Virus record (IMG/VR): IMGVR_UViG_2778261162_000007
Source: a virus
Taxonomy: Duplodnaviria > Heunggongvirae > Uroviricota > Caudoviricetes
DNA length: 47,425 nt
Direction: 5' to 3' (one strand)
The translations under genes were made by a program, and so were the position numbers. The first letter of the stretch is position 1. Each line of letters begins with the position of its first letter. The notes beneath the pieces are model-generated. The model was not told where the DNA came from, did not search any database, and worked only from the letters and a program-made list of their open reading frames with translations. Positions 12,909-39,050 of the stretch are shown in pieces.

Positions 12909-13682
12909 TTAGAACTGTTCATTGCCATCGAGGTTAGGTAGCATAATTTTTTCAATCAAGGCGAGAGCCTTTTTGTCCCGGTCAGCGAAGTATTTCGGGG
13001 CATATTGCGGCAACCAAATATTGTTAAAATGTTCTTTGAAATCTGCTAAATATTCATTTGGGTACAGCCTTGCAGGGTATACGCGACCATCGGGATATTC
13101 ATGGTCATAGGTAGGGAATGTTTTGGGTTCTACGTTTCTATTATCTCTTAACCATTGTGAAAATACTCTTCCTTGTGAAATGTCAGGAACCATTTTTTCT
13201 GGGAGTGTGTACCCTGCTTGTTCAAGAGGTGCAACCAAGTTGAATGTCAGTTCATTAAGAATAGAAAAGTGCGTGTGAGGAATTCTACTACGATTAACCA
13301 TGTACCGTTTTAAATGTACAGGCATTTCTGCTGTAGTTCTTTCCCCTGACATCCATTCACGAACCCATCTTGAAACCTGGACTGCAAATTTGGGCGATAG
13401 CCACTGCGCTAGATTAATAGCGATGTCAGGATGCACCCATGTCCCTTGGTTTTCAGGTCTTCCACCTTTAAATGATTGAATTAACTCCGATATGGGAATT
13501 CCCATATCGCGTGATAATTCGTCAAAAAACTCTTGAGTAGTTTTGAGTCTAGTGTAATCAGAGAGCAGTTTGCCCGCAGTTCTACACATTGATGTGGCGT
13601 TTATGTAACCATCTTTGGCACGTAAATGTATTATTTCGCCGTCAATTTCACGAGAAATCAAAGATAATTGAAAGGATGTCAT
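12909..13682 (-). CDS. KilA-N domain protein
   Basis: N-terminal region ...IHLRAKDGYINATSMCRTAGKLL...GGRPENQGTWVHPDIAINLAQWLSPKFAVQVSRWV matches the KilA-N pattern. Confidence 0.7.
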   Translation of the reverse strand: MTSFQLSLISREIDGEIIHLRAKDGYINATSMCRTAGKLLSDYTRLKTTQEFFDELSRDMGIPISELIQSFKGGRPENQGTWVHPDIAINLAQWLSPKFAVQVSRWVREWMSGERTTAEMPVHLKRYMVNRSRIPHTHFSILNELTFNLVAPLEQAGYTLPEKMVPDISQGRVFSQWLRDNRNVEPKTFPTYDHEYPDGRVYPARLYPNEYLADFKEHFNNIWLPQYAPKYFADRDKKALALIEKIMLPNLDGNEQF

Positions 13683-14204
13683 TGAAAATTCCTCAAGTTG
13701 GAGAGTTCTGGAACATTAAGGCGAGGTGGCCGTAATGCACCATCTGTAATCTTTTGATACTGACGTAATCGGGCCTGATGTGCAACGCCTTGCAAGTATG
13801 TAACTCATTGAAAACGATCATTTTTATCTATTGACATCAAATGGCAAACTGTCATTGTGCGGCTATGGCAAGTGGCAAATGCTTATAAATCATATGGATA
13901 TAAATAGTACAGAAAGAGTTGTTTTCTCTAGGATATGAGTATACGCCCAATGCTGATTGGTTGAATTTTGTTCTTGTTTTAAAGGGTAAGAGTTTAAAGT
14001 GTTGGCAGTGATGTATTGGATAGTTAGAATTGCTGTGGGTGCTTGAGGCTATCTGCCTCGGGCATGATCACCAAAGGTAGATAGAGAAAAGCCCCAGTTA
14101 ACATTACGCGTCCTGCAAGACGTTTAACATTAATCTGAGGCCATATCTATGCGACACATAGAGATTAGCCTCTTACGGACCGAAAGGTCAAGGAGAAGCA
14201 GGCT

Positions 14205-14360
14205 ATGAAGCAGCAAAAGGCGATGTTAATCGCCCTGATCGTCATCTGTTTAACCGTCATAGTGACGGCACTGGTAACGAGGAAAGACCTCTGTGAGGTA
14301 CGAATCCGAACCGGGCAGACGGAGGTCGCTGTCTTCACAGCTTACGAACCTGAGGAGTAA
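14205..14360 (+). CDS. Hok/Gef-family type I toxin (51 aa)
   Basis: MKQQKAMLIALIVICLTVIVTALVTRKDLCEVRIRTGQTEVAVFTAYEPEE closely resembles Gef/Hok; AGGAGAAG RBS; sits in a 1.1-kb AT-rich non-coding island. Confidence 0.85.
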   Translation: MKQQKAMLIALIVICLTVIVTALVTRKDLCEVRIRTGQTEVAVFTAYEPEE

Positions 14361-15426: not shown

Positions 15427-15716
15427 TGGTGGATTTACGTAAAGCGGCGCGGGGCCAGATGTGCCAGGTCAGAATCCCTGGCTACTGCAATCACAATCCC
15501 GAAACTTCTGTGCTGGCGCATTACAGGTTGGCGGGAACGTGCGGAACGGCGATAAAGCCACACGATATGCAGGCAGCGATTGCCTGTAGCTCGTGCCACG
15601 ATTTAATCGACGGGCGGGTAAAAACAAGCGATTACACCAAAGAAGAATTACGCCTGATGCATGCAGAAGGTGTTTTTCGCACGCAAGAAATCTGGAGAAA
15701 GGAAGGTTATTTATGA
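15426..15716 (+). CDS. YbcO-like Cys-rich putative nuclease (DUF1364)
   Basis: MVDLRKAARGQMCQVRIPGYCNHNPETSVLAHYRLAGTCGT...ACSSCHD. Confidence 0.65.
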   Translation: MVDLRKAARGQMCQVRIPGYCNHNPETSVLAHYRLAGTCGTAIKPHDMQAAIACSSCHDLIDGRVKTSDYTKEELRLMHAEGVFRTQEIWRKEGYL

Positions 15717-16255
15717 TTTACCCAACAAATACAGGCAAAAGCGGGGAACACCTTCGTCTCACCACGCTGGAAAGTGTCTGGATTCAGGGAAAACTGCGCA
15801 TGTGGGGGCGCTGGTCGTATATTGGCGGCGGTAAGACGGGGAATATGTTCAACCAGTTGTTGGCCTCTAAAAAGCTGACAAAAACGGCAATTAACGAGGC
15901 GCTCCGGAGGATGAAAAAAGCAGGTCTGAACAAGTCTGAACTTGAGGCTTTTTTGCGGGATATGATTAACGGTAAGCAAAAGAGCTGGCTGGCGCATTGT
16001 ACTGATGCAGAGGCGTTATGTATTGATCGGGTCATAAGTGAGGTGCTGGCAGAGCATCCAGGATTGATTAGCGTCCTTCGTCAACGGTATGAGGGGCGGG
16101 GGATGACCAAACGCAAAATGGCTGAATTGCTAAATGATGCACACCCAGAGTGGTGTTTTAGCACATGCGAAAAGCGAATTGCTAATTGGTTGGCCGTTGC
16201 TGAGTATGCGCTATACATTCCTATGCGAGAATCATTCGCTCAAAAAACGGCTTGA
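15713..16255 (+). CDS. Late-gene antiterminator Q-like protein
   Basis: ATGA overlap with the upstream gene; L..WGRW motif (LRMWGRWS) as in Q-family antiterminators; followed by an intrinsic terminator. Confidence 0.55.
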   Translation: MIYPTNTGKSGEHLRLTTLESVWIQGKLRMWGRWSYIGGGKTGNMFNQLLASKKLTKTAINEALRRMKKAGLNKSELEAFLRDMINGKQKSWLAHCTDAEALCIDRVISEVLAEHPGLISVLRQRYEGRGMTKRKMAELLNDAHPEWCFSTCEKRIANWLAVAEYALYIPMRESFAQKTA

Positions 16256-16338
16256 TTTTTTACGCATAAACCGCTTCAATTTTGCTAAGCTTCGCAAAGC
16301 TGTATCGCGAGGTGAACCAAGCGCATGAACTTTGATAC

Positions 16339-16364
16339 AACCCGCCATTGAGCGGGTTTTTTAT
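16339..16364 (+). terminator. Intrinsic terminator (tR'-like) downstream of Q
   Basis: AACCCGC-cattga-GCGGGTT hairpin followed by a T-run. Confidence 0.55.
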
Positions 16365-16484
16365 GTCCGAAAAACGGCAGAGAACATAAAACGTGCTGGT
16401 GGTTGCGAATACTGGTCTTTCGGCTTGTATTTTTGTAAATCGATATATACTTATCTTGTGACCAGTAATGTCAGGGCAATTGAT

Positions 16485-17228
16485 ATGAATGAAGCCTGTT
16501 CTGTTGTTTTTGTTCATTCCCCGTTTGTTGTGCTCTTTGAAGGAAAAGAGCTCTCTCTTGAAAGTGGTAGTGCACTTCTTGTCAGGGGGGGAGCTGGATC
16601 GTTATTGCCCTTTTCGGAATGTTTTCGGCGAATAAGTCTCAGTGAATCGACAATTAGCCGTTACCTGTTGTGTGGAGACGAAAAACAGGATGTAGTTTTA
16701 GTCCGGCAAATACCACGATATCTTTGCGTGAGTTTTCCGAAGGCAGAATTGATGGGCATCCTGATTGATTATCTTTGTGAGGAAAAGATTCATACGGACA
16801 ATTTAGCGGAAATGCTTTCCTTTTCGTGTCTGGCGTTTTTCTCATCAGAGAAGATGTTTTCGTCGTTTCTGACCGCGTGTATTAGCAATATTAGTGACAG
16901 GCTTAGTGCATTGTTTCGTACGGACATTGCAGCAAACTGGACTCTGAGAGATGTGTCTTCGCGGTTATGTATCAGTGAAAGTTTGTTAAAAAAAAGACTG
17001 AAAGAAGAAGGCACCTGTTTCAGTGAGTTGTTGCTTACAGAGAGAATGAGAATGGCAGCAATGCTGTTGAATCAATCTCGTTGCGCCATCAACAGAATCG
17101 CTGCTCAGTGCGGCTATAATTTTACATCTTATTTTATCAGCGTATTCAGGAGTTATTTTGGTGTTACACCGGCAGGTTACAGGATGGCTGCATTCAATGA
17201 GATGAGTTTAAGTGTTACTCAAGAATAA
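16485..17228 (+). CDS. AraC/XylS-family transcriptional regulator (AppY/PatE-like moron)
   Basis: C-terminal double HTH ...WTLRDVSSRLCISESLLKKRLKEEGTCFSELLLTERMRMAAMLLNQSRCAINRIAAQCGYNFTSYFISVFRSYFGVTPAGY; visibly AT-rich; lies between two terminators. Confidence 0.8.
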   Translation: MNEACSVVFVHSPFVVLFEGKELSLESGSALLVRGGAGSLLPFSECFRRISLSESTISRYLLCGDEKQDVVLVRQIPRYLCVSFPKAELMGILIDYLCEEKIHTDNLAEMLSFSCLAFFSSEKMFSSFLTACISNISDRLSALFRTDIAANWTLRDVSSRLCISESLLKKRLKEEGTCFSELLLTERMRMAAMLLNQSRCAINRIAAQCGYNFTSYFISVFRSYFGVTPAGYRMAAFNEMSLSVTQE

Positions 17229-17796: not shown

Positions 17797-18061
17797 CCTT
17801 CCCGGATTGCTGAATGTAGCGTTATGCACGGTTATCGTGCTGACGCTCTTTTTTTATCGTCGCCGTGATTCCAGACATAAACCGCTGATGTCATGGCTGG
17901 CGTGGCTGCTGATGCTGCTGTATGCCTTTGCGCCCCTCAGCTATCTGTGTGGTCGCCCGTTAGCAACGGGCTGGCTGGAAGTGTTTTTTAACCTGCTGTT
18001 CTGCGTGCTGGTGATACGCGCACGCGGGAACGTCACAAAAATCTTTCCATTGTTGAGGTGA
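17786..18061 (+). CDS. Second small membrane protein (holin/antiholin-like)
   Basis: Start overlaps the previous stop; three predicted TM segments. Confidence 0.4.
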   Translation: MLSNLPGLLNVALCTVIVLTLFFYRRRDSRHKPLMSWLAWLLMLLYAFAPLSYLCGRPLATGWLEVFFNLLFCVLVIRARGNVTKIFPLLR

Positions 18062-18441
18062 ATATGTCGGGTAAATTCAGATTCAGCCGTCGCAGTGAAA
18101 AAAATCTGGAGGGCGTTAAACCACAGCTGGTTGCTGTCGTTCGCCGTGCGCTGGAGCTGACGGAGGTTGATTTCGGTATTACGGAAGGGCTGCGCACGAA
18201 AGAACGCCAGAAACAGCTGGTCGCGGAAGGGAAAAGCCAGACCATGAACAGCCGCCACCTGACCGGTGATGCGGTGGATGTTGTTGCCTGGGTTGGCAGC
18301 CAGGTGTCATGGGACTGGCCTCTGTACGAGAAAATCGCGCAGGCATTTAAGAAGGCTGCCGCAGAGCTGGGAACTGCCATCGAATGGGGCGGGGACTGGA
18401 AAACACTGAAAGACGGGCCTCACTTTCAGTTGAAACGCTGA
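18058..18441 (+). CDS. Endolysin, L-alanyl-D-glutamate peptidase (peptidase M15 family)
   Basis: ...NSRHLTGDAVDVVAW...GGDW...GPHFQL, an H..D...H-type metallopeptidase pattern typical of M15 endolysins. Confidence 0.75.
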   Translation: MNMSGKFRFSRRSEKNLEGVKPQLVAVVRRALELTEVDFGITEGLRTKERQKQLVAEGKSQTMNSRHLTGDAVDVVAWVGSQVSWDWPLYEKIAQAFKKAAAELGTAIEWGGDWKTLKDGPHFQLKR

Positions 18442-19232: not shown

Positions 19233-20021
19233 ATGAGCGAGAAATTGAAGATCGTCTATCGCCCGTTGCAAAAACTGTCTCCGTATGCGCACAACGCCAG
19301 GACACACAGCCCTGAGCAGGTGGCACAACTGGTAGAAAGCATTAAGCAATTCGGCTGGACCAATCCGGTGCTGATTGACGAAAAGGGCGAAATTATTGCT
19401 GGTCACGGTCGCGTGATGGCGGCTGAGGTGCTCAAAATGGATTCTGTTCCGGTCATTGTTCTGTCTGGCCTGACGGATGATCAGAAAAAGGCGTACCGCC
19501 TGGCAGATAATCGCCTGCCGCTCAACGCTGGCTGGGATGAAGAACTGTTACGGGTGGAACTGTCGGAGCTAATCAATGCTGATTTTGATATCTCCCTGAC
19601 AGGATTCAGCCCAACAGAAATTGATGAACTGTTGATGGAAGTTTTGCCAGGTACCGGAAATGAGGAGGAGCAGTATACGACGAAAATTGATACGCCTGTT
19701 TATGAGCCGTCGGGCGATAAACCGGATATCAGTGAACTGTACGACGATACGAAAACTCAGGAGCTGATCAGCCGGATACGTTCGGCGTCCCTTGAGCCTG
19801 ATATCGAAAAATTCCTCCTGTGCGCGGCAGAACGCCACACGGTGTTTAATTTCAGCAGAATTGCGGATTATTACGCTCACGCCCCCGCTGAAATTCAGCG
19901 CCTTTTTGAGGAGTCGGCGCTGGTGATCATTGATTATCAGCAGGCTATTGAAAATGGATTTGTCCGGATGACGCAGCACATGGTGGAGAGCATGCATGGC
20001 GGGGAGGAGGAATATGCGTGA
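19233..20021 (+). CDS. ParB-like nuclease domain protein
   Basis: N-terminal ...PNARTHSPEQVAQLVESIKQFGWTNPVLIDEKGEIIAGHGRVMAA..., a ParB N-terminal (ParB/Srx) pattern. Confidence 0.7.
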   Translation: MSEKLKIVYRPLQKLSPYAHNARTHSPEQVAQLVESIKQFGWTNPVLIDEKGEIIAGHGRVMAAEVLKMDSVPVIVLSGLTDDQKKAYRLADNRLPLNAGWDEELLRVELSELINADFDISLTGFSPTEIDELLMEVLPGTGNEEEQYTTKIDTPVYEPSGDKPDISELYDDTKTQELISRIRSASLEPDIEKFLLCAAERHTVFNFSRIADYYAHAPAEIQRLFEESALVIIDYQQAIENGFVRMTQHMVESMHGGEEEYA

Positions 20022-20946
20022 TGATTTTTGCGCCTTTATTCTGACTCACGGGCGACCGGACAAAGTTCTGACTTACCGGACGTTGCGTCGTGCTGGCTAT
20101 ACCGGGAAAATTTTTATCGTTGTTGATGATGAAGATAAGACACGGCATCAGTACATAGTTGAATTTGGTGAACAGGTGCTGGTGTTTTCCAAAGCCGATA
20201 TAGCCAGTCGTTTTGACGAAGCCGATAATTTCGGTGATCGCCGCTCAATTTTTTACGCCCGTAATGCCTGTTTCGACCTGGCAAAACTGGTCGGGTGTAA
20301 ATACTTCATTCAGCTCGATGATGATTATCACGAGTTCCAGTTTCGGGTGGATCGCAACTATGACCAGGCCTATTTCCCGATAAGAAAACTGGATGCGATC
20401 CTTTCTGAAATGCTGGCGTACTACGAATCAATACCTGCGCTTTCCATCGCTATGTCGCAGGGCGGGGATTTTCTTGGTGACAATGGCGGCCATGCTTCGT
20501 GGGTGAAACGCAAGGCAATGAACAGCTTTATCTGTTCGGTTGATCGACCGTTCTCATTCATGGGGCGCATTAACGAGGATGTGAATACGTACACGAATCT
20601 CGGTCGCTGTGGTGAATTGTTTATGACGATCGGTGCTGTCCAGTTAGGGCAGAAACAGACGCAGAAAAACAGCGGCGGAATGACCGAGCTGTATCTGGAT
20701 TCCGGAACCTACGTTAAAAGTTTTTACTCCGTCATGTATGCGCCCTCGTGCGTAAAAATCTCACTGATGGGGGCCAGCCATAAACGCATTCACCATCAGG
20801 TCACTTGGAACAACGCTGCAGTAAAAATCCTTCACGAAAAATACAGGAAGAAGACACCCTGCATATCAATGGGGGTGACAAATGATTCCGTATTCGAAAG
20901 TCGAGTCTCTGGCAGCGTGCCGGATGACTGCACAACAAATCGCTGA
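20014..20946 (+). CDS. Hypothetical GT-A-fold-like protein (putative nucleotide-sugar transferase)
   Basis: ATG overlaps the ParB-like stop; strong GGGGAGGAGG RBS; FILTHGRPD...IFIVVDDEDK and later QLDDDY resemble a GT2 N-terminal strand plus DxD motifs; no methyltransferase motifs and no TM segment. Confidence 0.4.
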   Translation: MRDDFCAFILTHGRPDKVLTYRTLRRAGYTGKIFIVVDDEDKTRHQYIVEFGEQVLVFSKADIASRFDEADNFGDRRSIFYARNACFDLAKLVGCKYFIQLDDDYHEFQFRVDRNYDQAYFPIRKLDAILSEMLAYYESIPALSIAMSQGGDFLGDNGGHASWVKRKAMNSFICSVDRPFSFMGRINEDVNTYTNLGRCGELFMTIGAVQLGQKQTQKNSGGMTELYLDSGTYVKSFYSVMYAPSCVKISLMGASHKRIHHQVTWNNAAVKILHEKYRKKTPCISMGVTNDSVFESRVSGSVPDDCTTNR

Positions 20947-21136: not shown

Positions 21137-22228
21137 ATGAGCAGACCGGACTGGGGGGCGTTGCAGCAGGAATATATTGCTGAATACACCCGCTCCGGTG
21201 TATCTCCGGTGGCATGGTGTGAGGCAAGGGGACTGAATTACGCAACAGCCCGTCGTTACATCAAAAAACCTCCGAAAAATGCGCAGACAGAAATGCGCAA
21301 AACTGCGCAACAAAGTGCGCAGAAAAAATCTGCGCAGACTGCGCAAAAGCGGAACGGAAAATCTCAGAAAAAAAAGCCAGTATCCGATGCGTGCCTGAAT
21401 GAGGGCGACGCGGAGGAATTTTCGTTCTGCCCCGATGAATTCGGCATTTCTGACCAGCAGGCTAAGTTTGCGATGCTTGTTGCTCAGGGGAAAAAGCCGA
21501 CAGAGGCATACCGACTGGCTGGTTATGAGGGGCAAGGTGCGACAGCTAACAGCAACGCCAGCCGTATGCTTAGAAATGCCAGGGTTTATCGTGCTATCAG
21601 CTACTTCCGCAATCAGTATCAGAAACGCTATACCGCAGACCTGGATTTACTGGTGAGTCAGTTGATGGCTATTGTCCAGGCCGACCCCAATCAGTTGGCA
21701 CAATTTCGCCGTGTTAACTGCCGTTATTGCTGGGGCGAGAATCATCTCTACCAGTGGCGTGATATTGCAGAATTCGATAAGGCAGCGGCACAGGCCTCCA
21801 GAGATGGCAAACCCGAGCCGGAATATGGAGGCCTCGGCTTTGTTGATAACGCCATACCCAATCCGGATTGTCCGAAGTGCTGCGGTGAGGGAACGGGACA
21901 GCTTTATATGGCTGATACCACTCTGCTTGATGGGGATGTGCGACAATTATATGCAGGGGCAAAGCTCGGGAAATTTGGTGTTGAGATCCTGCTGGAGGAT
22001 AAGGCTGCCGCCCGGCGCGAACTTATCAAGCTGATAATGGCGACGAAAGGAAGTTCTGCTGGTGGTGCAACTGACAGTCGCAATGATCTGGAGCTTGAAG
22101 GACTGAGGCTTCGCAACGAAAAGCTGCGCACTGAGATTGAAAACCTCAAAAAAGGCGTGGGTGGTGAGAATAACGAAATAATTATCCACAACTCTCTGCC
22201 GATGCCGGGAGTGGATAATGTCGATTGA
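21137..22228 (+). CDS. Terminase small subunit
   Basis: Central ...QQAKFAMLVAQGKKPTEAYRLAGYEGQGATANSNASRMLRNARVYRAI matches the small-terminase HTH pattern; immediately upstream of the large terminase. Confidence 0.7.
   Translation: MSRPDWGALQQEYIAEYTRSGVSPVAWCEARGLNYATARRYIKKPPKNAQTEMRKTAQQSAQKKSAQTAQKRNGKSQKKKPVSDACLNEGDAEEFSFCPDEFGISDQQAKFAMLVAQGKKPTEAYRLAGYEGQGATANSNASRMLRNARVYRAISYFRNQYQKRYTADLDLLVSQLMAIVQADPNQLAQFRRVNCRYCWGENHLYQWRDIAEFDKAAAQASRDGKPEPEYGGLGFVDNAIPNPDCPKCCGEGTGQLYMADTTLLDGDVRQLYAGAKLGKFGVEILLEDKAAARRELIKLIMATKGSSAGGATDSRNDLELEGLRLRNEKLRTEIENLKKGVGGENNEIIIHNSLPMPGVDNVD
21280..21345. repeat. Cluster of six palindromic TGCGCA hexamers inside terS (candidate pac/TerS-binding site)
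   Basis: TGCGCA at about 21280, 21294, 21304, 21316, 21331 and 21340, spaced 9-15 bp. Confidence 0.5.
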
Positions 22229-23546
22229 AATCTACCTCCCAAAACCTCATGAGGGGCAAATAGCTGCATGGACGGCGGCAATAGAGGAACGCTTCCACGC
22301 GGTATGCTGTGGTCGTCGCTGGGGTAAAACGGTGATGCTGGTAAACATCGCTACCAGTTTCGCTACGCGGAAATTTGCCGTTCCTACCACCGGGCAACTT
22401 ATCGCGGGTAGGGTGGGGATTTTTACCGCACAATACCGCCAGTACCAGGAAATCTGGGATGAAATTAGCGCCGTTCTGCAACCGCTGATCCTCAGCCAGT
22501 CAAAAAATGAAAAGCGCATTATTCTCCGTAATGGGGGGCGCATCGACTTTTGGGTAACGGACAATAACAAACTGGCCGGGCGTGGGCGTAAATATCACGC
22601 TGTGCTGATTGATGAGGCAGCATTCACTAAATCGCCGGAAATGCTCGAGGAAATCTGGCCCCGAGCTATACGCCCGACGCTTGTCGATTACCGCGGCTGT
22701 GCGTGGGTATTTTCCACACCAAACGGTATCGACGAGAGCAATTTTTTCTACGCGATATGCCACGATGAATCCCTGGGATTTGTCATGCACCATGCGCCAA
22801 CTTCATCGAATCCGTATATTCCGAAAGAAGAACTGGAGGAAACGGAGAAGAAATCCGATCCGCGCGTCTGGCAGCAGGAATATCTTGCCGAGTTCGTGGA
22901 CTGGTCCAAAGACGCGTTACTCGATGTCGATAAGCTGCTGGTGGACGGTCAGCCGATTGAGATGCCGCCGTACTGCGACATGATTTTCGCAGTGATGGAT
23001 ACGGCGCTGAAAGGCGGGACCGAAAATGATGGTACTGGCGTGTTGTATTTCGCTTATGAGTCAACGTATTCGGAAGAGCCAAAACTGACGATTATTGACT
23101 GGGATGTTACGCAAATTAAAGCGTCATTGCTTCCTGAATATATCCCCGGCGTTTATGACAACCTTGAGCGCCTCGCGAAATTATGCCGTCCGCGTCTGGG
23201 CAGCCAGGGAATTTTTATGGAAGACGCCGCGATGGGGGCAATCCTCAACCAGAAGGCGGAAACCGAAGGCTGGGATATGACGCCGATTAAATCGGCACTA
23301 ACCAGCAAGGGCAAAGACGAACGGGCGGTGATGGCATCCAGCTACCACTATCAGGGGATGTGCAAAATCGTCCGGGAGGCTTACGACAAGACCGTTTCAT
23401 TCAAGCGCACCACCGCAAACCACCTCATAAAACAAATCGCCGGATTCCACCTGGCGGATAAAGACGCGCATAAACGTGCTGATGACCTTTTCGATTGTTA
23501 CACCTATGGATTGATCATCGCGCACGGTAATTACGCGGAGTTGTAA
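22218..23546 (+). CDS. Terminase large subunit
   Basis: Walker A-like CGRRWGKT near the N-terminus; 442 aa; position. Confidence 0.88.
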   Translation: MSIEIYLPKPHEGQIAAWTAAIEERFHAVCCGRRWGKTVMLVNIATSFATRKFAVPTTGQLIAGRVGIFTAQYRQYQEIWDEISAVLQPLILSQSKNEKRIILRNGGRIDFWVTDNNKLAGRGRKYHAVLIDEAAFTKSPEMLEEIWPRAIRPTLVDYRGCAWVFSTPNGIDESNFFYAICHDESLGFVMHHAPTSSNPYIPKEELEETEKKSDPRVWQQEYLAEFVDWSKDALLDVDKLLVDGQPIEMPPYCDMIFAVMDTALKGGTENDGTGVLYFAYESTYSEEPKLTIIDWDVTQIKASLLPEYIPGVYDNLERLAKLCRPRLGSQGIFMEDAAMGAILNQKAETEGWDMTPIKSALTSKGKDERAVMASSYHYQGMCKIVREAYDKTVSFKRTTANHLIKQIAGFHLADKDAHKRADDLFDCYTYGLIIAHGNYAEL

Positions 23547-38901: not shown

Positions 38902-39050
38902 ATCACAGTTTTATGATAAAACTTTTACCTTGGTTTGGAGTGCTGTAGAGAGATATTTTAGGGGGGCGAGTAATTTTCTAAGCTGGAGCATATTGACATA
39001 TATTATTTCGGATTTGCAAAATACATATTGTTACCATGGAGGAGACAAGC

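Follow-up and report, generated by a model that had tools for sequence, protein, structure and literature searches.

A predicted TAGT-family glycosyltransferase gene overlapping a ParB-domain gene in the late operon of an E. coli prophage

The 47,425-nt stretch of DNA described here (IMGVR_UViG_2778261162_000007; hereafter "the window") is a lambdoid, Rac-like E. coli prophage. Its late operon includes, just 5' of the terminase genes, two overlapping genes, the first encoding a 262-amino-acid (aa) protein with an N-terminal ParB domain and the second a 310-aa protein (Table 1). The 310-aa protein is a predicted soluble, GT-A-type DxD glycosyltransferase of the TAGT family (TET-associated glycosyltransferase; Pfam PF20691), with catalytic-type motifs that appear intact. 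Its conserved partner, as judged from gene order and sequence, is the uncharacterised C-terminal domain (CTD) of the 262-aa protein and not the ParB domain. Both open reading frames (ORFs) are evidently real genes rather than chance ORFs, with >8000 homologous clusters for the glycosyltransferase and >7000 for the partner domain.

The glycosyltransferase and its conserved partner domain

What is the evidence that the downstream gene encodes a glycosyltransferase? The 310-aa protein matches the TAGT profile with 119.6 bits (cut-off 27.5), with residues 8–222 aligned to positions 4–205 of 205, and its RefSeq/PGAP name is "GREB1-related protein". The motifs quoted in the initial annotation are all present, namely FILTHGRPD (residues 8–16), IFIVVDDEDK (33–42) and QLDDDY (100–105). 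The DDD of the last motif is invariant in 18 homologues (57–83% identity), as are R14, D38, D41, E69, D71, N187-E188-D189, R258, H260, H261 and W265, among others. The T4-like Aeromonas phage Aeh1 has kept the DD pair in its enzyme, as has a homologue from a Porphyromonas phage. Indeed, the Aeh1 enzyme is only 25% identical, yet it has R, DD, GRxNED, TQ..GG.TE.Y and R.HH motifs in common with the prophage protein. In an AlphaFold2 model, residues 1–150 mostly have a predicted local distance difference test score (pLDDT) >85, and Foldseek searches of the PDB match this confident N-terminal half to GT-A enzymes only (E <= 1e-3; SpsA, chondroitin polymerase, glycogenin, SunS/ThuS and others). The TM-scores of these matches are low (0.26–0.41) because the C-terminal third of the model is poor. 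The highest 19-aa Kyte-Doolittle mean is 1.08, with no transmembrane-like segment, and no methyltransferase family matches the protein. Thus, the initial description of a soluble GT-A-like DxD protein without transmembrane segments or methyltransferase motifs holds. No sequence relative of the glycosyltransferase is found in the PDB, and NCBIfam and PADLOC scans of it gave no match.

Homologues of the glycosyltransferase fall into 1502 representative clusters at 50% identity. Some are fusions in which TAGT is joined to a P-loop kinase-like, Methyltransf_23-type, sulfotransferase-like or second glycosyltransferase domain (representatives P0144, P0173, P0176, P0126, P0134, P0148, P0163, P0141 and P0150), and at one locus (L155 7001–9074) the gene order is CTD, Methyltransf_23-like, TAGT. 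These fusion partners and the intervening Methyltransf_23-like gene suggest that the transferred sugar, or else the acceptor, is tailored further. No natural CTD–TAGT fusion protein is present among the best 150 representatives.

The two genes are joined by a coupling junction. Reading of the sequence confirmed both ORFs and the ATG/TGA overlap: the glycosyltransferase ATG at 20014 lies 8 nt inside the partner gene, and the overlap reads ATGCGTGA (ATGcgTGA). The strong ribosome-binding site reported in the initial annotation is likewise there; the site is GGAGGAGG, and the stretch GGGGAGGAGGAA at 20001–20012 precedes the ATG. An alternative in-frame ATG at 19996 would yield a 316-aa glycosyltransferase, but the homologues all start M-R-D-D-F, and hence 20014 is taken as the true start. 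Most homologues are 283–292 aa in length, and the final ~22 residues of the 310-aa protein are an E. coli lineage-specific extension.

This arrangement is not peculiar to E. coli. The survey of homologous neighbourhoods that the initial annotation had proposed was run with one genome per species and covered 55 loci at 43–99% identity, from Enterobacterales, Bacteroidota, Firmicutes, Veillonella, Acidobacteriota, Desulfobacterota, Saccharibacteria, a Virgibacillus plasmid and an archaeal metagenome-assembled genome (MAG). The CTD is encoded immediately 5' of TAGT in 53 of the 55 loci, and the two exceptions are loci cut at that point. Across phyla, TAGT is 43–65% identical and the CTD 39–58%, with ParB_N more divergent. 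Such strong conservation of TAGT and the CTD across phyla argues for a universal rather than a host-specific substrate. The stop and start codons of the CTD and TAGT genes overlap in 53 of 59 non-redundant loci, by exactly 8 or 11 nt in 45 of them. Two MAGs have a pair of TAGT paralogues after a single ParB-CTD gene, directly adjacent in a Sphingomicrobium MAG (L001 1357–3938) and ~0.8 kb apart in a Hyphomonadaceae MAG (L132 2614–6137).

In E. coli and in most prophages the CTD is joined to a ParB domain; it also occurs without one. Five surveyed loci encode it as a stand-alone protein of 131–153 aa, and a CTD profile retrieved at least 7257 protein clusters, the best-scoring of which are mostly stand-alone and ~131–136 aa long; no Pfam domain is found among the 120 CTD clusters listed. 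TAGT is the next gene in all stand-alone contexts examined, in one of them after a Methyltransf_23-like gene, and no ParB_N annotation lies within 7–10 kb of the examined stand-alone CTD genes. The pair is also present in isolated viruses, including Lactobacillus phage phi jlb1, haloarchaeal virus HHTV-2 (genes 21/22) and a Porphyromonas phage in which TAGT is only 27% identical. The pair is likewise found in Vibrio phage pv27, and 191-kb Vibrio phages have it with a stand-alone CTD, among replication genes. Searches with tblastn, in which the enzyme gene alone was looked at, found further glycosyltransferase homologues in L. delbrueckii phages and in Nocardia phage NTR1.

The CTD itself (~110 aa; residues ~146–262) has no Pfam family and no structural relative. 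Its model is a five-helix bundle that follows a linear motif, Y148-[T/S]-x-K-I-x-x-P155-x-Y157-E-P, and precedes an acidic tail. Among 46 partner proteins, Y148, P155 and Y157 never vary; the same is true of Y148 and Y157 among 68 CTD proteins. The motif has pLDDT <50 in the isolated CTD model and is predicted to be disordered alone. The net charge is about −23 for the partner protein and −15 for the CTD. CTD homologues have a median isoelectric point near 4.5–5; the glycosyltransferase is neutral to basic.

The N-terminal part of the partner is a ParB domain, as the initial annotation stated: the protein matches Pfam ParB_N (PF02195) with 28.7 bits (cut-off 26.3) and phrog_620 "ParB-like partition protein" with an E value of 8e-88. 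Its PGAP/RefSeq name is "ynaK: ParB/Srx family N-terminal domain-containing protein", and it represents YnaK of E. coli K-12 at full length. Of 46 partner proteins in other taxa, 34 have a PF02195 match. In phmmer alignments to Spo0J (1VZ0 and 6SDK), R23 falls at the QPR position, G57-H-G-R60 at GERR and N93 at the N of box III, with His here in place of the Glu of GERR. The nucleotide-phosphate-binding residues of the ParB fold are thus kept. Residues 3–146 match the N-terminus of phage ParB–DNA-methyltransferase fusions (phrog_498, E 2e-51; PADLOC MTase_II, E 5e-38), and this kinship makes it a reasonable idea that the glycosyltransferase occupies the usual place of a methyltransferase. A canonical partition ParB of a ParABS system was considered and rejected: there is no Pfam match to a helix-turn-helix or ParB_C domain, TIGR00180 scores 36.7 against a cut-off of 58.45, and the window has no ParA-like ORF. 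The term "ParB-like nuclease" in the initial annotation should also be dropped. No nuclease family matches the protein, the name comes from annotation only, and the nearest experimental parallel is a ParB-like protein that activates a DNA-modifying enzyme (PMC13229309).

Possible functions of the pair

What might the two proteins do together? The reading that we prefer, with slightly less than even confidence, is that the products of both genes form a single, obligate two-protein glycosyltransferase that is produced late in lytic growth: the CTD protein activates or targets the enzyme, and phage DNA is glycosylated before packaging. The CTD would bind the glycosyltransferase through its helical bundle and the Y-T-x-K-I-x-x-P-x-Y-E-P segment, and would be needed for activity or targeting. 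The nucleotide-bound ParB domain would help to retain the enzyme on freshly replicated double-stranded DNA (dsDNA), or to time it there, before packaging, a role that would parallel the activation of thymine dioxygenase 5mYOX176 by ParB176 on dsDNA. The enzyme would move a hexose from a UDP-sugar to phage DNA, such that packaged genomes would be marked or protected in the next host. There is precedent for parts of this scheme. For example, a phage ParB-like protein without a DNA-binding domain is required for thymine dioxygenase action on dsDNA (PMC13229309), and the ParB_N type found here is the one fused to DNA methyltransferases (PMC12704722). The idea that ParB steers DNA-modification enzymes at packaging is credited to Iyer et al. 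2013 in a passage of PMC8256090. The TAGT fusions also seem to resemble DNA hypermodification clusters, in favor of DNA as the target. A role of the pair in DNA glycosylation or anti-restriction is something that we infer rather than observe.

Several findings weigh against DNA glycosylation by the pair, and many of them concern the acceptor. Characterised TAGT members glycosylate 5-hydroxymethylcytosine (hmC), 5-hydroxymethyluracil (hmU) or glucosyl-hmC in DNA (PMC13216743; bioRxiv 10.1101/2023.12.21.572611), and a 5-hydroxymethyl-pyrimidine is the sole acceptor known for DNA-acting members. More generally, all characterised family members use an oxygen nucleophile, be it on hmC, on hmU, on a sugar on DNA or on Ser/Thr in the case of GREB1 (PMC13216743, PMC7968844), and canonical DNA offers none. 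Every sizeable ORF was scanned with Pfam, and no TET/JBP, no thymidylate-synthase-like hydroxymethylase and no DNA methyltransferase turned up in the 47-kb prophage, which also has no dCMP hydroxymethylase, no alpha-glucosyltransferase (alpha-GT) and no beta-glucosyltransferase (beta-GT). A neighbor census of ~50 other loci, covering 146 downstream and 119 upstream ORFs (up to three on each side), found no TET/JBP or hydroxymethylase among the top 25 recurrent families of each census, and no TET/JBP or other source of 5-hydroxymethyl-pyrimidine was found in five further 20-kb contexts. The enzyme therefore fails the contextual hallmark of TAGT, association with a dioxygenase. With no hydroxymethyl-making enzyme, the acceptor would have to be a feature of canonical DNA, which would be unprecedented in the family, or something other than DNA. 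The partner is strongly acidic and has no recognisable DNA-binding domain; it is too acidic for an ordinary DNA-binding subunit. Many phages have the CTD and TAGT without ParB_N within 10 kb, among early or replication genes, and hence neither ParB nor the position beside the terminase is essential to the core function. Lastly, the C-terminal third of the glycosyltransferase model is of low confidence.

There is a bolder version of the preferred reading that would answer the acceptor problem. The CTD and TAGT could glycosylate DNA by themselves, as a self-sufficient system independent of prior hydroxymethylation, with the sugar placed directly on a feature of canonical dsDNA and with the CTD taking over the role of the hydroxymethyl group, by presenting the base or by forming a composite active site. 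We regard this version as unlikely. If it were true, bacterial and archaeal tailed viruses would have a chemically new class of DNA modification, latent in about one-sixth of E. coli genomes.

The main rival explanation, itself improbable on balance, makes the partner the acceptor: the glycosyltransferase would O-glycosylate the partner at Tyr148, Thr/Ser149 or Tyr157, and the glycosylated acidic protein, acting as a decoy, DNA mimic or packaging regulator, would be the product. The invariant hydroxyl residues do lie in a segment that is predicted to be disordered, the CTD is the sole universally co-occurring gene, and the strong acidity of the partner fits a DNA-mimic-like product. No CTD is encoded beside the T4-like Aeh1 enzyme, whose acceptor is on DNA. 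Within the family, GREB1 is a protein O-GlcNAc transferase (PMC7968844), and the structural neighbors of the prophage enzyme include peptide- or self-glycosylating GT-A enzymes (glycogenin, SunS/ThuS, ColGalT1), although with low TM-scores. However, translational coupling through overlapping codons suggests equimolar subunits rather than a catalyst and its substrate, and a simple acceptor peptide would leave the conserved bundle residues R201, H202, D212, Y214, E226 and D234 unexplained. Resemblance to DNA-modification clusters, in the methyltransferase type of ParB_N and in the kinase and methyltransferase fusions of TAGT, also speaks for DNA. A different universal substrate, either RNA (at a 2'-OH or at a modified base of tRNA) or a nucleotide or nucleoside in free form (an NTP or immune signaling nucleotide), would fit the nucleotide-binding ParB_N fold, which takes CTP, ATP or GTP and which some lineages join to RNA-related domains (PMC12704722). 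It would also satisfy the demand for a universal substrate that high conservation across bacterial and archaeal viruses makes, and would remove the difficulty that canonical DNA has no hydroxyl acceptor; moreover, the nucleoside glycosyltransferase AvpGT with Ara-A is among the structural neighbors. We nevertheless find this distinctly unlikely, as the core pair often lacks ParB_N, no characterised TAGT enzyme acts on RNA or free nucleotides, and the gene contexts are those of DNA packaging, replication and DNA methylases.

Two further explanations set the coupling or the activity of the pair aside. One is glycosylation of the envelope or virion, with the ParB-like gene merely adjacent: the target would be lipopolysaccharide or teichoic acid, giving seroconversion like that by TarP/Gtr, or capsid or packaging proteins as in mycobacteriophages. 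Remodeling of the cell surface is common among prophage GT-A/GT2-like enzymes, other phage GT-A enzymes have TarP as their top PDB neighbor (bioRxiv 10.1101/2023.12.21.572611), and the gene adjoins structural and packaging genes. This is nonetheless very improbable. The enzyme has no transmembrane segment and no Gtr-type partners, and the same pair is found in viruses of Gram-negative, Gram-positive, candidate phyla radiation and haloarchaeal hosts, which have no common envelope polymer. The adjacent terminases are from unrelated families, and therefore offer no conserved structural-protein substrate; strict coupling to the CTD would also go unexplained. The other explanation, that the pair is a decaying and no longer functional remnant of a TET/JBP–ParB–glycosyltransferase hypermodification cluster, is extremely unlikely. 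ParB-dependent dioxygenase clusters do often hold glycosyltransferases and terminases (PMC13229309), and ~680 E. coli genomes, including K-12 and BL21(DE3), have fragments only. Against decay stand the 889 complete E. coli genomes with an intact pair, the 43–65% identity across phyla with catalytic-type residues all invariant, the conserved coupling, and the presence of the pair in isolated infectious phages with no dioxygenase nearby.

Known systems and earlier descriptions

How does the pair compare with systems that are already known? T2/T6 beta-glucosyl-HMC-alpha-glucosyltransferase and the TET-associated phage glycosyltransferases belong to the same Pfam family as the prophage enzyme; they too are soluble, phage-encoded and of GT-A-type fold, and motifs are shared with the T4-like member. 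However, identity to T4-like members is only 22–26%, and the prophage has no hmC synthesis, alpha- or beta-GT, or TET/JBP. The clade described here has an obligate upstream CTD partner, whereas no CTD was found near the T4-like Aeh1 enzyme gene. PHROGs and RefSeq give homologues the name beta-glucosyl-HMC-alpha-glucosyltransferase. This name was considered and rejected: given the lack of a dCMP hydroxymethylase and alpha-GT and the 22–26% identity, the transferred T-even annotation is unjustified for the clade. Eukaryotic relatives are GREB1, an animal protein O-GlcNAc transferase, and the trypanosome base-J glucosyltransferase, which have a homologous catalytic domain by Pfam and PGAP naming (PMC7968844) but are distant proteins with other architectures and known acceptors (estrogen receptor alpha Ser/Thr, and hmU in DNA).

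Two systems resemble the pair in the ParB-like component. In the 5mYOX176/ParB176 system (O'Toole et al., PNAS 2026, PMC13229309), an enzyme of DNA-modification type likewise stands beside a ParB-like protein, and the clusters are often near terminase genes. Proteins of the ParB176 type and the partner described here have a common layout, in which a nucleotide-binding domain at the N-terminus is followed by a helical region, then a flexible linker and a C-terminal domain, and neither has a DNA-binding domain; for the CTDs, the likeness is one of description. In contrast, the enzyme here is a glycosyltransferase and not a dioxygenase, and the CTD is also very abundant as a stand-alone protein without ParB_N. 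The second system is the phage ParB_N–DNA methyltransferase fusions (phrog_498; PADLOC MTase_II; PF02195 + PF01555 / PF13489), which have a closely related ParB_N and linker and the same prophage late-region location. As in these systems, Methyltransf_23-type domains are fused or adjacent to TAGT; unlike in them, the catalytic partner is a separate protein and a glycosyltransferase, and the ParB module is fused to the CTD.

The description of the pair as a "novel module" was overstated, given that Pfam names the family, PGAP names the gene, and both solitary TAGT genes and the adjacency of glycosyltransferase and ParB-like genes are in print. Solitary TAGT genes and ParB-like genes near phage glycosyltransferases have been noted (PMC13216743; bioRxiv 10.1101/2023.12.21.572611), and TAGT/GT-A genes that stand alone, with their role open, account for 288 of 753 phages in one of these papers and ~65% of contigs in the other. 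The clade described here corresponds to these "solitary TAGT" genes, the function of which is stated to be open in PMC13216743. No functional study of the pair was found in the literature. TAGT was reportedly defined by Iyer et al. 2013. No description of the CTD as a universal partner, of its stand-alone form or of the conserved gene overlap was found in literature other than Iyer et al. 2013.

What would follow from these observations? The phage glycosyltransferases of this family have so far been known only as the last step of DNA hypermodification, after installation of a hydroxymethyl group. The orphan TAGT class now gains a signature: an obligate, coupled and unannotated partner domain (at least 7000 clusters), frequent fusion of that domain to a ParB fold, and hosts as far apart as E. 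coli and haloarchaea. Should DNA be the target, the pair would provide a new route to DNA glycosylation, with a bearing on evasion of restriction, on phage therapy and on sequencing artefacts. Should it instead be the partner protein, the pair would form a new system of protein glycosylation in phages. In both cases, ynaK of E. coli acquires a context, and the newly recognised role of ParB-like proteins beside nucleic-acid-modifying enzymes is extended. The system occurs in tractable strains, being intact in E. coli W, APEC O1 and 042, with only the ynaK stump in K-12.

Genomic setting of the pair

The pair is common in E. coli. It is intact in 889 of 5426 complete genomes, and fragments are present in ~680 more. 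A record labelled DH5alpha (NZ_CP026085.1) also has the intact pair. K-12 ynaK is the first 254 nt of the ParB-CTD gene and lies beside the pseudogene ydaY, and BL21(DE3) keeps 231 nt (hits H143–H151). Across species, the pair with ParB_N sits directly before packaging genes, whatever the terminase type: among ~50 loci, there were at least 34 matches to large terminase subunits, from at least four unrelated Pfam families, up to three ORFs downstream (Terminase_6N 19, Terminase_3 12, GpA 2 and TerL_ATPase 1). Upstream neighbors are variable and include single-stranded DNA-binding protein (SSB), VRR-NUC, HNH, DNA methylases and replication genes. In the prophage, the initial annotation placed the pair directly upstream of the terminase. 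The terminase small-subunit (TerS) and large-subunit (TerL) genes do follow, but an 83-aa TerS-like ORF intervenes and overlaps the last 65 nt of the glycosyltransferase gene (20882–20946). No promoter-like site was found 5' of the pair, which is therefore read as part of the late transcript.

The initial annotation also held that ParB-like proteins at this position are usually paired with methyltransferases. The close relationship of this ParB_N to the methyltransferase-fusion type agrees with that view, but replacement of one module by the other in the same slot was not demonstrated. Two sister prophages with the same lysis cassette have an HNH endonuclease and a P27-type terminase in the slot, and neither the pair nor a ParB-methyltransferase; positional replacement is thus not borne out. 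The absence of the pair from these two prophages indicates that, in those comparisons, it is optional cargo.

Table 1. Coordinates of the gene pair, its sequence features and the neighboring prophage genes, in window positions
Feature	Position	Strand	Remarks
Integrase	1-1236	minus	First recognised gene of the prophage
RecT and RecE; YdaS/YdaT; DnaT- and P-like replication genes			Recognised genes after the integrase, in this order
Q-like antiterminator	15593-16255		
AraC-family regulator	16332-17228	+	Between Q-like antiterminator and holin genes; typical moron position
Two holins			Before the endolysin
M15 endolysin	18058-18441		Followed by the gene pair
YnaK-like partner protein, 262 aa	19233..20021	+	ParB N-terminal domain, helical linker and CTD; Pfam ParB_N, phrog_620, PGAP ynaK
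ParB_N domain and "WDxELL...LTGF" helical linker (residues 1-140)	19233..19652	+	phmmer alignment to Spo0J 1VZ0, 6SDK
Linear motif at CTD start	19674..19709	+	Candidate for docking of the glycosyltransferase, or else for the acceptor site
CTD helical bundle (~residues 165-250) and acidic tail	19725..20018	+	Conserved R201-H202, D212, Y214, E226, S228, D234
Coupling junction	20001..20021	+	Ribosome-binding site GGGGAGGAGGAA; glycosyltransferase ATG 20014-20016; partner-gene TGA 20019-20021; sequence read directly
TAGT-family (PF20691) GT-A-like glycosyltransferase, 310 aa (predicted)	20014..20946	+	Pfam TAGT E 2e-34; phrog_842 E 2e-102
DxD motif D102-D103-D104	20317..20325	+	Metal/nucleotide-sugar binding in GT-A enzymes; invariant in 18 homologues
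TerS-like ORF, 83 aa	20882..21133	+	phrog_309 E 1.7e-22; between glycosyltransferase and TerS genes
Terminase small subunit	21137-22228	+	Pfam Terminase_2; phrog_51
Terminase large subunit	22218-23546	+	Pfam Terminase_6N; phrog_2
Portal and tail genes			3' of the terminase genes

Other features of the prophage are recorded here as observations in their own right. The palindrome TGCGCA occurs six times within 66 bp (21280–21345), at spacings of 9–15 bp, in the 5' part of the terminase small-subunit gene and ~330 nt 3' of the glycosyltransferase gene. These are six of 19 occurrences in the whole window, a total in line with chance expectation, and the array could be a pac site or a TerS-binding array. 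Two RNAs match Rfam above the gathering score, namely RalA small RNA, the antitoxin of the Rac prophage RalR toxin (1557–1735, +; 218 bits), and a sok-type antisense RNA (14037–14207, +; 101 bits), which gives the prophage two type I toxin-antitoxin loci. An ORF at 12909–13682 (−) has a KilA-N domain, and its C-terminal part matches the PADLOC model of BstA, a prophage abortive-infection protein (E 3e-21). Amid the tail and baseplate genes, a 391-aa ORF (39036–40211, +) has an HSDR_N domain, which is a type I restriction R-subunit N-terminal nuclease-like domain (E 6e-14), and is possibly a defence moron. An ORF at 45695–47179 (+), located just 3' of the tail-fibre assembly gene at the prophage end, encodes a YadA-like trimeric autotransporter adhesin with head repeats and a membrane anchor.

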